A stretch of DNA of 64,000 nucleotides from an uncultured delta proteobacterium (GCA_963814715.1 CAWFDW010000001.1:910184-974183); one strand, 5' to 3'. Shown: positions 56,716 to 60,926, counted from the stretch's first letter. A program made the numbers and translations. The notes: generated by a model not told the origin, from the sequence alone.

Positions 56716-58737
56716 ATGACCGATGATAGCGTTCACGCTCTCGGGCCCCTGTTCGGGCCGGACTTTATAACTATCGAGATCGATGATGAAACCGGCTCTA
56801 AATTCGCTCTGGAGATCTTTCCCGACGCTAACAATCCCGCCCTGAAACAGAACGGGCTAGCCACTCAGTTTTACTACATGCCGAAGGAAATCGAATTAGC
56901 AAAGAGGGAGGATTCCCCCACCGACTTCGATTTCAGCGTGACGCTATTCAAAGGGCTCATGACAGCTGAAGACACGTTAGGAGTCAGCGGCATCCCCAGC
57001 ACCGGTGGCGAAGTCGACGCGGGCGGGGCTTTTGTGTCTTTTTCGACCACGATGGCCGTTCCGGATAGCGTGGTTGCAAGTGCGCTGGCCAAGCTCAAGG
57101 CGCAAGATCACGAGCCGCCGCCCGCCAGGATTGCGCAGTTCTTCTTGCGGGCCCCGAAGGATCCCGATCCGTTATTGGGTATCGTTCCAATCGTCGATAA
57201 TGCCGTAACCATCGAAGTTCCACAGCTGCCAGGAGCGGGTGATGCCAAATCGCCTTGGTTTATCGGCGCTCAGGGAACCGGGCACGGGAGCATAGAAGCC
57301 TCCGGCGTCAGCAGCTTTCTGGTAACTTGCAACCAAATGGCAGCGGGCGCAATCGTTGGCGCCCTCAAGGATGGCCGCTCTCCATTCACCGTCCACTACA
57401 ACATGAAGCTCCTGTTTTATATCAACGCCTGCGACATCCGGATGCACGTCGATGTCGATAAGACTTTCGACCAATTTTCCGGTGCCGTGCAGGCGAAATA
57501 TGGCTTTGTCCAAGCCGATCTTTCTGCCAACTACCAATCGTGTGTCACCAACGGCGCGATCAGCACGGTTATCCAGCAGAATGGCACCGACGTCGACGCG
57601 GATATGAAGAAGCTAATCGAAAAGACCGTCTCGGATATGCAGGATAAAGCATGGAACCTTGTGAAGACAGAGATCTTCGACTGGCAGCCGAAACCTGACG
57701 ATCCTGCAAAGGCCAGCGCCGGTGCATGCGGAGGAGTCGCGGTTAATCTTAAGATGAGTTATCAGAAACATGCCGTCAAGTTCGATGACCACTTCGAGAT
57801 CAATCAGACGATCTCGAAGGAGGATACAGTGTCGGGAACGCTGACAGCCCTTGAACCGGCGATCAAAAAAGATCTCGACAAGTATCTTTCAATTGTCGAC
57901 ATCGGCGAGTTCTTTAAGAAGATTCAGATTGCGGCTTCGCCCAACATCGACTTCGGAGAAGGAGAGATGTCCGATCCGATCAACGAAGCCCTCATACAGG
58001 TGAGTTATCCCAATTACGATAGCCCTGTGAACGCCGATGGTAGCATGGCGCTGACAACTCACGCCGAGGGCTTTCACTACAGCCCTACCCATATCGATCA
58101 GACAGCACCGGTCACTCTGGCTAGCTGGAGTCGCGACAACCCCAAGGACATTATCAATATCTCGTTCTTGCGGCTGGATAAGAAGGTCGCCAATTGGGAC
58201 AGCGACCAGGTCAAGATAAAAAAAACGCTCATCTATAAGCCGGACGATCCCCGGGTTGACCTTTCGAACGGCACCGTTACTTATACATCGGAAGCCACCT
58301 CAACTGATCACGCGCCTGTCATAGGCCCTGACGATGTCGGGTATGTCTTTATCAAGTTCTTCCTGGATCGACCCATAAAGTCTTCAAATATCACGGTAAC
58401 ACTGACGATTCAGATGGGAGACCGGAGTGACGTACTTGTTATGACGAATGACGATCCTAAGGCGAACCCTGTGGCGACCTGGCAGATCTGGTCAGATAAG
58501 TACTTCAGTCAAACAATGGCACGAGTCAAGATCGACGTGGAGGTTGCCCCACCGCCGTCTGATTTTGCGGGGACCGCAGTGCAGTGGAGCGGGAATCAAG
58601 CCGTACCTCTTAACTTGGGCCGCATTAAACGGATCGTACCCTACAAAATTATAGTTCCAGAACTGACCAATCCGGACCAAAACGCCCAGGTCGGCAAATA
58701 CATTCTACAGACTCTCAAGGAAGCTGCTGTGAAATGA
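56716..58737 (+). CDS. orphan 673-aa protein (P1), no recognisable domain
   Basis: AAGGAG lies 9 nt upstream of the ATG. Uninterrupted ORF in a low-GC segment. No signal peptide, TM helix or P-loop. Confidence 0.85.
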   Translation: MTDDSVHALGPLFGPDFITIEIDDETGSKFALEIFPDANNPALKQNGLATQFYYMPKEIELAKREDSPTDFDFSVTLFKGLMTAEDTLGVSGIPSTGGEVDAGGAFVSFSTTMAVPDSVVASALAKLKAQDHEPPPARIAQFFLRAPKDPDPLLGIVPIVDNAVTIEVPQLPGAGDAKSPWFIGAQGTGHGSIEASGVSSFLVTCNQMAAGAIVGALKDGRSPFTVHYNMKLLFYINACDIRMHVDVDKTFDQFSGAVQAKYGFVQADLSANYQSCVTNGAISTVIQQNGTDVDADMKKLIEKTVSDMQDKAWNLVKTEIFDWQPKPDDPAKASAGACGGVAVNLKMSYQKHAVKFDDHFEINQTISKEDTVSGTLTALEPAIKKDLDKYLSIVDIGEFFKKIQIAASPNIDFGEGEMSDPINEALIQVSYPNYDSPVNADGSMALTTHAEGFHYSPTHIDQTAPVTLASWSRDNPKDIINISFLRLDKKVANWDSDQVKIKKTLIYKPDDPRVDLSNGTVTYTSEATSTDHAPVIGPDDVGYVFIKFFLDRPIKSSNITVTLTIQMGDRSDVLVMTNDDPKANPVATWQIWSDKYFSQTMARVKIDVEVAPPPSDFAGTAVQWSGNQAVPLNLGRIKRIVPYKIIVPELTNPDQNAQVGKYILQTLKEAAVK

Positions 58738-60926
58738 ACCAATTTATGGCGAGGAACACTGTTCGCTTCGCCGGGGCAGCGACGGTTAAACCCGTCGCTG
58801 CTTTGCCAATTGGATTCAGGACTGGAGGGTTAGCAGAGCAAAAGCCTCCGGTTAAAACTGTTCCTCCTCCGCCGCCCGCTGCTTTGCCCTTGATGAGTTC
58901 TCAAACCGGCAATTTATTTGTCGATCGAAATGACGCCAACTTGCACTGGTACCTCCCCGACTTCACGCCGGCTCAAGACGTCGATTCAGGATTTTCATTC
59001 GTAGCAAGCCAATCTGGCCAGGACCAAAATGGAAATCCATTCAATACAGCACGGCTGACGCTAGGAGTTCTTAAGGTTGAGCCGGATGACGTCCTGAAGT
59101 TTTCGCAAGCAAACCCTGCGGCAAAACTTCAGGAAATTCCACTCGCAGAAATATCGGCCACCTTGGTTAGTTACTACACAGACGAGGCGGGTCAGCAGCA
59201 GCAAAGAGGATTCCGGGCAACCATCCTGGACACCGGCAATAAGAATTTTCTACTGACGTTTGACGGTTCGATTTTGGGCTCGTCAGTGGTCGGACTATAC
59301 GAAGATCTCACGATGTTCGGGAAGGCAGTCATCAACCTTTCGGCTTCATACGAAGCATGGGCTCAACGCGGAGGCTTGTTTATTCCGACCCATTTCGCGC
59401 AGAGCGCTGTTTTAAAAACCCTAGCTCCAGAGCCTCCGCCAACGAAGGCGCCAATGTTGGATGTTAAGCCGCAGATGATGGCCGTTGCGCCTGCCAATCG
59501 GATGCGATCATTTGTCCCATTGATGGCACAGCAACATACGGGCGCCCCTCAGCAACCTGCCAGCGACACACTTGTGCAGACAAGGCAGTCATGGTCGAAG
59601 TCATTGCCACTGGGCCTGAAATACAAGCAGGACGGCTATCAACTCAAATTTACGGTTTCAACCGCGACAATTCCTAGCCACGTGATTCGCGATGCTAGTG
59701 ACCTTAAGGCCTTCTCTTTGAGCCAAACGGAATTTACGGAGCTAAAGGCGCTCGGAGACGTGAGACAGAGATACCCGACCCTGAGCGCCCTCTATATCGG
59801 TGTTCTCAGTAGAACGATCGTCGTGATTCCGAGAAGTTATTCAATCGTTCGCGGCCGGCTTGGATGCGCTGCCTTGTGCATGGCTTTGGTAGATAGTTCC
59901 GCAGCAGATGGCAGCAAATGCAAGTTCGAGTTCGACTTCACAATCGCGCCCGCGGTTAGCCGCATCGAATTCCTTAAGCTCACCCAGGAGATTGCGAGTC
60001 GAGAAGATCTTAAGGGTTTCACGCCCAAGTTGCCGGAGTTTCAGCGCGACACTCCTCCGTCGACTCTTCAGACGGAATTCAAAAGTAGCGTCCAGTTTAA
60101 CGCTGGTATCGACCCTCACACTTTCGCCGTAACTGTTTCGATTCTCGACGACGCCTCTCAGACGCCCGCCGTTGCCAATGCGAATCTCTTCATATCGCGG
60201 CTTTCCTCAAATACCGGAACCGACCTTGTCGGCTCGTTGAGCGTGAAACTTGATGATGGTTACCCGGACTCTATCCTACCGACGATCGACTTGAATTTCG
60301 CACATACGGTAGGCACCGATGAGATCGTTGTGGAACTTGAGGAAGCTTCAGCTCAGGTTAAACTAACCAATGACTCGCCGCTCGATCTTCAGCTTTCGCG
60401 CTACGCGCTCATAGAGGGAGCGACCATTGCTGAGGTAGATGGCCTCCTTTCGCTCCCTGCAAATGGCTCCTTATTCGTTCCTCTGCCGGAGGACCATAGC
60501 GACTTGATGCTAGCCGCGGACTCGCAACTGGTCATTCCGAATCCTATGACGAAGTCAGATGTCGCGCGGCTCCTTCATTTTCAAACTGCTGATGTTCAGG
60601 AAACTCAATACGTCGTGGCGGTGGATGGTTCCGGCATAGACTTTAATGAAGTCGATTCAGTCGTGTGTACCATCACGTTCAGCAATCTATCGAGTGTGGT
60701 GCCTCGATCTTTGAAGCTCAACAAGAACCTTCGCGCGGACAGCACACACATTGTAATCCCGCTGGAAAACGCCGTGTTTTCTCTGCTTGGTACGGTTAAT
60801 CTGGCCGTTCACTTTGTCGTTACCGGACCGAGTGATCTGAACTTCACACTCGAGAATGATTTCACGTCCGAGCCGGTTTTGATCATACTCCAAAGCGCCA
60901 TCGATAAGAATCTTTCCAAGAGTTAG
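58734..60926 (+). CDS. orphan 730-aa protein (P2), no recognisable domain
   Basis: ATG 58734 overlaps the P1 stop (ATGA). Pro-rich segments at aa 36-52 and ~231-278. The rest is beta-rich. No signal peptide. Confidence 0.85.
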   Translation: MNQFMARNTVRFAGAATVKPVAALPIGFRTGGLAEQKPPVKTVPPPPPAALPLMSSQTGNLFVDRNDANLHWYLPDFTPAQDVDSGFSFVASQSGQDQNGNPFNTARLTLGVLKVEPDDVLKFSQANPAAKLQEIPLAEISATLVSYYTDEAGQQQQRGFRATILDTGNKNFLLTFDGSILGSSVVGLYEDLTMFGKAVINLSASYEAWAQRGGLFIPTHFAQSAVLKTLAPEPPPTKAPMLDVKPQMMAVAPANRMRSFVPLMAQQHTGAPQQPASDTLVQTRQSWSKSLPLGLKYKQDGYQLKFTVSTATIPSHVIRDASDLKAFSLSQTEFTELKALGDVRQRYPTLSALYIGVLSRTIVVIPRSYSIVRGRLGCAALCMALVDSSAADGSKCKFEFDFTIAPAVSRIEFLKLTQEIASREDLKGFTPKLPEFQRDTPPSTLQTEFKSSVQFNAGIDPHTFAVTVSILDDASQTPAVANANLFISRLSSNTGTDLVGSLSVKLDDGYPDSILPTIDLNFAHTVGTDEIVVELEEASAQVKLTNDSPLDLQLSRYALIEGATIAEVDGLLSLPANGSLFVPLPEDHSDLMLAADSQLVIPNPMTKSDVARLLHFQTADVQETQYVVAVDGSGIDFNEVDSVVCTITFSNLSSVVPRSLKLNKNLRADSTHIVIPLENAVFSLLGTVNLAVHFVVTGPSDLNFTLENDFTSEPVLIILQSAIDKNLSKS

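Follow-up and report, generated by a model that had tools for sequence, protein, structure and literature searches.

In a 64,000-nucleotide stretch of DNA from an uncultured delta proteobacterium (GCA_963814715.1 CAWFDW010000001.1:910184-974183; hereafter the window, in whose coordinates all positions are given), two large, directly adjacent open reading frames (ORFs) on the plus strand, here named P1 (56716..58737, 673 aa) and P2 (58734..60926, 730 aa), were analyzed. Together with their relatives, they form the invariant core of an undescribed and, as the sequences indicate, horizontally mobile cassette, in which a leaderless protease and peptidoglycan-binding or peptidoglycan-cutting domains recur. 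It is probably a new lysis or toxin system under the control of proteases. A Shine-Dalgarno sequence (AAGGAG, 56701..56706, plus strand) lies 9 nt 5' of the P1 ATG, the P1 stop codon and the P2 start codon overlap in an ATGA (58734..58737, plus strand), and an internal Shine-Dalgarno-like AAGGAAG (58717..58723, plus strand) precedes the P2 start. These signals were read directly from the sequence and confirmed that the two ORFs of 673 and 730 aa constitute one operon, as proposed in a first-pass annotation of the window. The ATGA overlap is not kept family-wide, and gaps of 12–140 nt separate P1 from P2 at other loci. A scan for promoters and terminators found no promoter-like site around the operon, and its terminator-like matches were uninformative, being located inside coding regions only.

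Neither a signal peptide nor a sortase or lipoprotein signal was found in P1, which is acidic, or in P2, and both start without a leader. Transmembrane (TM) helices were likewise absent, with maximal Kyte-Doolittle means over 19 residues of 1.33 for P1 and 1.68 for P2, the latter falling within predicted β strands, so that the earlier view of two proteins without signal peptide or TM helix holds. The GC content of P1 (0.529) and P2 (0.520) was lower than that of the whole window (0.574). The pair does lie in the lowest-GC part, as first noted, with the region at 49–51 kb belonging equally to that class.

As single sequences, P1 and P2 gave no significant hmmscan match in Pfam, NCBIfam, PADLOC or PHROGs, and nothing significant was obtained against all PDB sequences, either by phmmer or by profile search. 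A DUF3577 match (E 0.0085, under its cut-off) and an ExbD match (E 0.02–0.08) were treated as noise. All 46 and 42 aligned members of the two families (88 in total) were also scanned singly against Pfam, with no match. P1 and P2 are therefore two protein families not covered by Pfam, NCBIfam, PADLOC or PHROGs, profile hits to characterised families are absent, and the initial statement that neither protein has a recognisable domain remains valid for these databases and for the PDB sequences. A published description of the P1-P2 pair was not found in the literature.

The description of both proteins as orphans, by contrast, was wrong. In a collection of 5.8 billion proteins, P1 had 286 and P2 103 homologue clusters, all labelled "hypothetical", and an exhaustive P1 profile search returned 280 representative clusters at 50% identity. 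When one genome per species was scanned, 52 loci emerged, with carriers in Binataceae, Verrucomicrobiota, Gamma-, Beta- and Alphaproteobacteria, Acidobacteriota, Bacteroidota, Eremiobacterota, Chloroflexota, Cyanobacteria and many Actinomycetota; the closest locus, from Binataceae, which is probably the lineage of the window itself, showed 91% identity. Native carriers include Collimonas sp. PA-H2, Chitinophaga polysaccharea and Rudaea sp. 3F27F6. The pair thus occurs in more than 10 phyla, among Gram-positive and Gram-negative bacteria alike, and P1 was followed by P2, adjacent and on the same strand, in 57 of the 58 loci examined by ORF clustering. A check of phylogenetic distribution and conserved neighbourhood, suggested at first pass, was therefore positive, in that two conserved families travel together. 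Since identities between phyla reach 70–78% and the GC content of the pair is low, the sequences indicate that it is mobile and has spread by horizontal transfer. No phage relatives were found in PHROGs, by tblastn against 50,697 phage records or among 2.9 million IMG/VR contigs, and a Foldseek search of the P1 model against BFVD gave weak immunoglobulin (Ig)-like matches only. Plasmid carriage was restricted to one distant match among 72,556 plasmids, on a Deinococcus megaplasmid.

With regard to the relationship between the two proteins, a full-length hhalign comparison of P1 and P2 gave a probability of 1.2%. A relaxed local alignment of their N-terminal domains looked collinear (28% identity over 140 columns, score 13.7), but this score was no better than that of column-shuffled controls (mean 14.3, SD 2.2), 118 of 200 shuffles reaching 13.7 or more. 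Paralogy of P1 and P2 was rejected on these grounds, and the shared N-terminal aromatic and F-x-F motif from which distant paralogy had been suspected has no statistical support. P2 evolves more rapidly than P1, its relatives averaging 40% identity to the window protein and those of P1 54%, and the divergences of P1 and P2 from the window proteins co-vary (Spearman 0.80, 47 loci).

The match on the megaplasmid, from Deinococcus taeanensis, belongs to a distant version of the cassette, termed type B. There, on p_TS293_2, the three adjacent genes LAJ19_RS14985-14975 encode a 781-aa P1 relative, a 1079-aa P2-like protein and a "caspase family protein" ending in a PG_binding_1 domain. The 1079-aa protein aligned to the P2 profile with a probability of 81% over 597 columns, and the P1 profiles of the window type (type A) and of type B aligned with an hhalign probability of 100% (E 5.6e-47, 599 columns), on which basis the two P1 versions are homologous. 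Ten type-B members gave nothing significant against Pfam. A metagenome scan with type-B proteins, for which an alignment of 6 sequences served as the query, revealed 78 loci; the order P1B-P2B-third gene on the same strand was present in 31 of them, which is nearly every locus with enough downstream DNA. Among 30 third-gene products, 21 were Peptidase_C14 and 9 Peptidase_S8 proteins, and these proteases were fused to PG_binding_1 (12), Peptidase_M15_3 (3) or GH25 (1); all type-B third-gene products start without a signal peptide. Some type-B cassettes contain two proteases, as in the metagenome loci L071 and L072, where a caspase-like protease (413–436 aa) and a subtilase (825–832 aa) follow P2B in tandem.

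Proteases also recur beside the pair in window-type loci, with Peptidase_S8 in 11, Peptidase_C14 in 3 and TIG/Peptidase_C70 in 4, the last being a protein directly upstream of the pair in four Eremiobacterota loci. All of these S8, C14 and C70 proteases are on the same strand as the pair and within approximately 3 kb of it, with none in the outer flanks, and matches to the PADLOC "subtilase" and "caspase" models were obtained for the neighbouring proteases. About a third of the window-type loci carry a leaderless protease beside the pair; more generally, none of the inspected proteases and wall enzymes begins with a signal peptide. In this window, a protease gene was not detected and, if the model proposed below is right, the system encoded here uses an unlinked protease or acts without one.

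Wall enzymes are the other recurrent partners. Directly downstream, convergent with P2 and 41 nt away from it, lies the gene for a leaderless GH25 muramidase (60968..62743, minus strand), with the GH25 domain in its N-terminal 170 aa. GH25 adjoins the pair in three independent lineages, namely in this window, in the Udaeobacter locus L007, which holds a complete cassette, and in L010, and in the type-B locus L100 it is fused to the cassette protease; because of these recurrences, the window muramidase is a probable accessory of the pair. The C-terminal approximately 390 aa of this protein (residues ~200–590) consist of repeats of about 45 residues, for which neither a Pfam match nor a relative in the other loci was found; by eye, they resemble a β-propeller or a lectin. 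A second leaderless enzyme, with PG_binding_1 and an endolysin-associated C-terminal domain (phrog_30036), is encoded 5 kb upstream of the pair (50793..51761, plus strand). PG_binding_1 enzymes with differing catalytic domains recur in the vicinity of the pair (8 of 53 window-type loci), and the one in this window is a possible accessory. The pair had been described as flanked by cell-wall hydrolases, and this is correct for the downstream side, while the upstream enzyme is not immediately adjacent. Amidase_2, GH46-like, M15 and GH25 enzymes were found at relatives. Flanking by wall hydrolases is a family-wide association and, together with the proteases, the main functional clue.

Models of P1 and P2 were built with AlphaFold2 (AF2) from the family alignments and are moderately confident (P1: pLDDT 78, pTM 0.43; P2: pLDDT 80, pTM 0.74). 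They bore out the expectation that both proteins are β-rich. P1 is predicted to comprise an N-terminal β-rich part, a central module, C-terminal β-sandwiches and a terminal helix. Its N-terminal part has two low-confidence loops (residues 81–102 and 173–196) holding conserved residues. The second of these (57232..57303, plus strand) is the sole insertion hot-spot of the family, in which 33–55 extra residues follow residue 173 in all variants of 715–738 aa, and 66–97 in type B; we consider it a candidate protease-accessible linker. In the same low-confidence region, a glycine-rich motif, PWF-x3-QG-x-G-x-GSI (residues 180–193; 57253..57294, plus strand), is common to window-type and type-B P1 and might serve in ligand binding, in membrane insertion or as a site of processing. 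The predicted central module (residues 225–375; 57388..57840, plus strand) is made up of four very long strands (239–262, 265–288, 340–362 and 365–375) and a 27-residue helix (295–321), and is followed by predicted β-sandwich domains (residues 402–650; 57919..58665, plus strand) with the highest pLDDT in P1.

P2 was modelled as a chain of several β-sandwich-like domains. Proline-rich disordered segments had been pointed out in this protein from its sequence, and the model indeed shows residues 23–43 and 215–277 as disordered. The latter segment is a proline-rich linker (59376..59564, plus strand) that parts the N-terminal domain (~51–211) from the remainder of the protein and measures 49–79 residues across the family, with 21% proline. 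Foldseek searches with the whole-chain models, against PDB for both proteins and against BFVD for P1, yielded only generic Ig-like multi-domain matches (TM 0.05–0.33), among them the TIE protein 6fwv, PG49 (4rdb), BACOVA adhesins, SlaB and α-2-macroglobulins. The Ig-like, pilin and adhesin matches of P1 are attributable to its predicted β-sandwich domains at residues 402–650. From the present searches with predicted models, no known fold is assignable to either protein.

Further genes surround the pair in the window and at other loci. A membrane protein of 295 aa (51859..52746, plus strand), most homologues of which have 288 aa, contains hydrophobic segments and did not match Pfam; homologues are encoded within 10 kb of the pair at 9 of 58 loci from several phyla. 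Its unannotated family numbers more than 1400 homologue clusters and occurs without the pair as well. The protein is a possible accessory, with a holin-like role by inference only. Next to it, a gene at 52813..56190 (minus strand) encodes a 1125-aa multi-TM protein with a signal peptide and no Pfam match. The same two proteins adjoin in a Binataceae contig (L059) without P1-P2, beside an S8 protease and a DUF6603 protein, and another homologue of the 295-aa protein lies near an eCIS_core gene (L060). Upstream of the pair, the window also contains a patatin-like phospholipase gene (46614..48110, minus strand) and one for a Kelch/ASH/Cep192-type Ig-domain protein (43585..46098, minus strand); the patatin, Kelch/ASH/Cep192 and hydrolase genes give the 43–63 kb region the look of a low-GC arsenal island. 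The lowest-GC gene of the window (GC 0.50) encodes a leaderless 203-aa protein (49951..50562, minus strand) that includes an amphipathic stretch rich in Ser/Thr. Searches of Pfam, PADLOC and PHROGs gave no match for this protein, its only PDB match is weak (E 0.49) and falls on the aerolysin-type module of the natterin-like protein 4zno, and it may be a small β pore-forming toxin. A 203-aa ORF of the closest Binataceae locus was considered as a relative and proved unrelated. Adjoining the GH25 gene, 63305..63982 (minus strand) encodes a small protein with HATPase_c and the DnaA C-terminal helix-turn-helix (Bac_DnaA_C).

At other loci, a CARDB-like acidic protein encoded directly after P2 is a recurrent neighbour, a patatin is the immediate neighbour of the pair at two loci, and TcdB_toxin_midN occurs only in separate neighbour genes, at 2 loci. 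A short P1 paralogue (349–390 aa, corresponding to P1 residues 10–397) follows P2 in Nocardia (L044, L045, L048 and L050) and Bradyrhizobium (L054), at about 14.2–15.4 kb of these loci; it retains the central module and does not have the C-terminal β-sandwich domains. This pairing of a long and a short P1 recalls two-component pore formers. Defence-related neighbours comprised mad3 and mad8 of the MADS system in Nocardia and single occurrences of SspH, HerA and DrmC. In the Nocardia loci L044–L049, the cassette lies beside the mad3 and mad8 matches and an AriA-like ATPase, which indicates a defence-island context in this lineage.

The reading that we tentatively favour, with less than even confidence, is that the cassette is an undescribed protease-licensed, envelope-directed lytic module in which P1-P2 open the membrane and thereby give the wall enzymes access to the peptidoglycan. 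The architecture of a protease-effector system is suggested by the linkage of the pair to three unrelated protease classes, by the fusion of the type-B protease to wall domains and by the leaderless nature of all parts. Given that the proteases, the wall enzymes, P1 and P2 are all leaderless and that P1 and P2 have no TM helix, the wall-directed partners would need a breach in the membrane, and P1-P2 are proposed to make it since they are the only universal partners. The observations consist of the conservation of the pair, its gene linkage, the missing export signals, the domains of the partners and the disordered linkers of variable length; cleavage of P1 and P2, permeabilisation of the membrane and self-directed lysis are what we infer from them. 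P1 and P2 would be made in the cytoplasm as latent, soluble, β-rich proteins. The linkers would then be cut by a subtilase, caspase-like or AvrRpt2-like partner protease, whose gene lies in cis in many relatives but not in this window; the loop after P1 residue 173 and P2 residues 215–277, exposed and variable in length, are the candidate sites. The processed P1-P2 would permeabilise the cytoplasmic membrane, and leaderless wall enzymes would reach the peptidoglycan and lyse the cell; these would be the GH25 muramidase and the PG_binding_1 enzyme here, and Amidase_2, M15, GH46-like or protease-fused domains elsewhere. Such a module would probably be used for regulated self-lysis, either in abortive infection or in programmed death. 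A more specific version, which we regard as somewhat unlikely, is that P1-P2 form a two-component machine for breaching membranes, of a class not recognised before and with a new fold, licensed by a caspase-, subtilisin- or papain-like protease and acting with leaderless peptidoglycan hydrolases in a "gasdermin plus endolysin" style of lysis.

Several observations weigh against a protease-licensed lytic module. Around two thirds of the window-type loci, this window included, have no protease in cis, and linker length was unrelated to the presence of a protease (Mann-Whitney p = 0.76). The domain arrangement of P1 is uncertain, given the low pTM of its model (0.43). Foldseek gave no gasdermin, aerolysin or MACPF match of weight, cholesterol-dependent cytolysin (CDC) chains appeared in the P1 search only at probabilities of 0.07–0.57 with a TM of ~0.1, and no structural match ties P1 or P2 to membrane binding or perforation. 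Defence genes near the pair are few, six of them coming from a single lineage, and PADLOC has no model for P1 or P2. The patatin, TcdB_toxin_midN, dockerin and FG-GAP neighbours point to secreted weapons over suicide, and the PG_binding_1 domain on the protease could be a sensor and not a targeting domain.

In the main rival reading, P1-P2 would be a leaderless binary protoxin, or a bacteriolytic or antifungal complex, directed against other organisms and released by lysis of a subpopulation through a holin/endolysin-type, "type 10 secretion"-like cassette, with the wall hydrolases and the 295-aa membrane protein opening the producer's envelope and the proteases maturing the toxin. We judge it unlikely. 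In its favour, large, leaderless, β-sandwich-rich proteins stand beside muramidase, amidase and M15 enzymes that are leaderless as well, and beside a small membrane protein that recurs; in the Serratia ChiWXYZ and Salmonella TtsA release systems, the wall is cut by M15 and muramidase enzymes. It would also suit the weapon-rich neighbourhoods, which hold patatin and Tle1-like phospholipases, TcdB_toxin_midN and dockerin/FG-GAP proteins, and here the possible small aerolysin-like protein; the antagonistic soil hosts, among them Collimonas, Chitinophaga, Streptomyces and Nocardia; and the NarL-type two-component or SARP-like regulators near several loci. However, the 295-aa membrane protein is present at only 9 of the 58 loci and comes from a large independent family that also exists without the pair, no receptor-binding or enzymatic toxin domain was detectable with Pfam and NCBIfam, and an immunity-like gene is not consistently present. 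The type-B protease, moreover, is virtually obligatory and fused to wall domains, which fits internal licensing better than the maturation of an exported toxin.

Alternatively, P1-P2 could be a sensor or scaffold that binds an invader or a damage signal and switches on a protease-lysin fusion as the true killer. Proteins without a catalytic motif, built largely of Ig-like domains typical of binding modules, would suit such a role, the third protein of type B already joins two enzymatic activities, and the faster evolution of P2 (40% vs 54% for P1) would be expected of a diversifying recognition subunit. This is nevertheless improbable, as it leaves the access of a cytoplasmic lysin to the wall unexplained; most window-type loci keep P1-P2 without a protease or lysin in cis, so the pair must act alone or with unlinked partners; and sensors of protease-effector modules are usually NTPases or protease-fused repeat proteins (PMC12642450). 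A non-toxic structural or housekeeping component of the envelope (an adhesin, pilin or S-layer-like protein), or a remnant of a phage tail or receptor-binding protein beside a phage lysin, is suggested by the top Foldseek matches, which are Ig-like adhesins, pilins and S-layer-type proteins (6fwv, 4rdb, BACOVA and SlaB), and by the GH25 and PG_binding_1 enzymes, which are typical parts of phage endolysins. We consider it very improbable: neither a signal peptide nor a sortase or lipoprotein signal is present, the Foldseek TM-scores are 0.07–0.3 and the similarity is only that of generic β-sandwiches. The three phage collections searched contained no relative of the pair, phage structural genes were not seen around it in the loci read, and its patchy distribution, driven by horizontal transfer, is unlike that of a housekeeping gene.

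Should the favoured reading of a protease-licensed lytic module be true, it would add a large two-protein effector to the bacterial protease-gated death and lysis modules, and would be the first such module in which a protease is fused to wall-binding or wall-cutting domains and has obligatory partners of unknown fold. It would also provide a holin-free route for leaderless lysins across the membrane, and membrane-active proteins for study. Even if this mechanism is wrong, the linkage is strong, with adjacency in 57 of 58 loci, three protease classes and a distant version with the same architecture, which makes the pair a well-defined experimental target whatever the mechanism.

In comparison with known systems, two-component β pore formers (long/short CDCL pairs, MACPF proteins, bicomponent leukocidins and Tpp/Gpp) resemble the pair in that both are β-rich, with very long β hairpins and Ig-like targeting domains, and in that a long P1 and a short paralogue without Ig-like domains coexist at some loci. 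CDC structures also recur among the weak P1 Foldseek matches. Neither P1 nor P2 matched MACPF or Thiol_cytolysin in Pfam or gave a confident structural match to their bent four-stranded sheet with two helical clusters, and the predicted arrangement of the P1 central module, with a long helix between two hairpins, does not fit the MACPF/CDC topology. The pair differs further from these pore formers in having no signal peptide and no sequence or profile match, and in that P2 is unrelated to P1. An aerolysin/ETX-MTX2 module was not found in Pfam, among PDB sequences or among the top Foldseek matches, and Pfam revealed none of the marks of Tc, RHS or polymorphic toxins (RHS/YD repeats, a TcB/TcC shell, known trafficking or toxin domains) in P1, P2 or the 88 aligned relatives.

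Holin-endolysin and type 10 secretion cassettes (Serratia ChiWXYZ, Salmonella TtsA, Tc-toxin lysis cassettes) likewise link leaderless muramidase, amidase or M15 enzymes with PG_binding_1 to large leaderless proteins, and their wall enzymes depend on a separate membrane-lesion factor. The signal-peptide-free peptidoglycan hydrolase that characterises these cassettes is present here, as the GH25 and PG_binding_1 enzymes of the window and as Amidase_2, GH46-like, M15 and GH25 enzymes in relatives. A small TM holin is not an obligatory part, considering that P1 and P2, the universal partners, have no TM helix and so are not holins, and that the only recurrent membrane protein accompanies the pair at 9 of 58 loci. 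In contrast to holin-endolysin cassettes, no spanin was seen here, the proteases are integral and the cassette is not phage-borne.

With bacterial gasdermins, the pair shares a leaderless effector without TM helix beside a C14 or S8 protease, and the proposed logic of cleavage followed by a pore made from the cytoplasmic side. This protease adjacency applies to about a third of the window-type loci and to nearly all type-B loci with enough downstream DNA, and is absent in the window. Pfam gave no gasdermin match to P1, P2 or the 88 aligned relatives, nor did PADLOC for the window proteins, and no gasdermin was among the 50 best PDB Foldseek matches of P1 and P2, which were obtained with whole-chain models (pTM 0.43 for P1). 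Bacterial gasdermins are far smaller than P1 and P2; they act as one protein where there are two here, and partnership with wall hydrolases is not a gasdermin feature.

Protease-effector modules with Pepco/Trypco, EACC1, MBL-fold and α/β-hydrolase effectors have been described (Evans et al. 2025 preprint, PMC12642450; Kaur et al. 2020, PMC7159879). The effectors of these modules, which are unrelated to P1 and P2, stay latent until they are cleaved, and two are pore formers; cleavage unleashes pore formers or nucleases, and the proteases may carry peptidoglycan-binding domains (PMC12642450). As in the cassette, a conserved protein of unknown function stands in these modules beside interchangeable trypsin-, caspase- or subtilisin-type proteases, some of which have peptidoglycan-binding domains, and actinomycetes, cyanobacteria and other soil bacteria are particularly rich in such modules. 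Their defining feature, linkage to several unrelated protease classes, was also observed for the P1-P2 pair, with S8, C14 and C70 proteases beside the same two genes. On the other hand, the known effectors are single proteins with small pore formers, in contrast to two obligatorily paired proteins of ~700 aa; several of those named in the preprint are small, with 117 aa in Pepco and EACC1 and CATASP described as small, or have known enzyme folds (PMC12642450). Homology of P1 or P2 to the ten surveyed families was not detectable, and Pfam, NCBIfam and PADLOC gave no match to Pepco, EACC1, MBL, α/β hydrolase, CATASP, MPE, Csx30 or CalpT. A STAND or other NTPase sensor was not seen here, many loci have no protease in cis, and the protease is often fused to a wall hydrolase (M15, GH25). 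While the tested features that define each of these families by homology are absent from the pair, its logic resembles that of protease-gated effectors, gasdermin systems and holin-endolysin cassettes.

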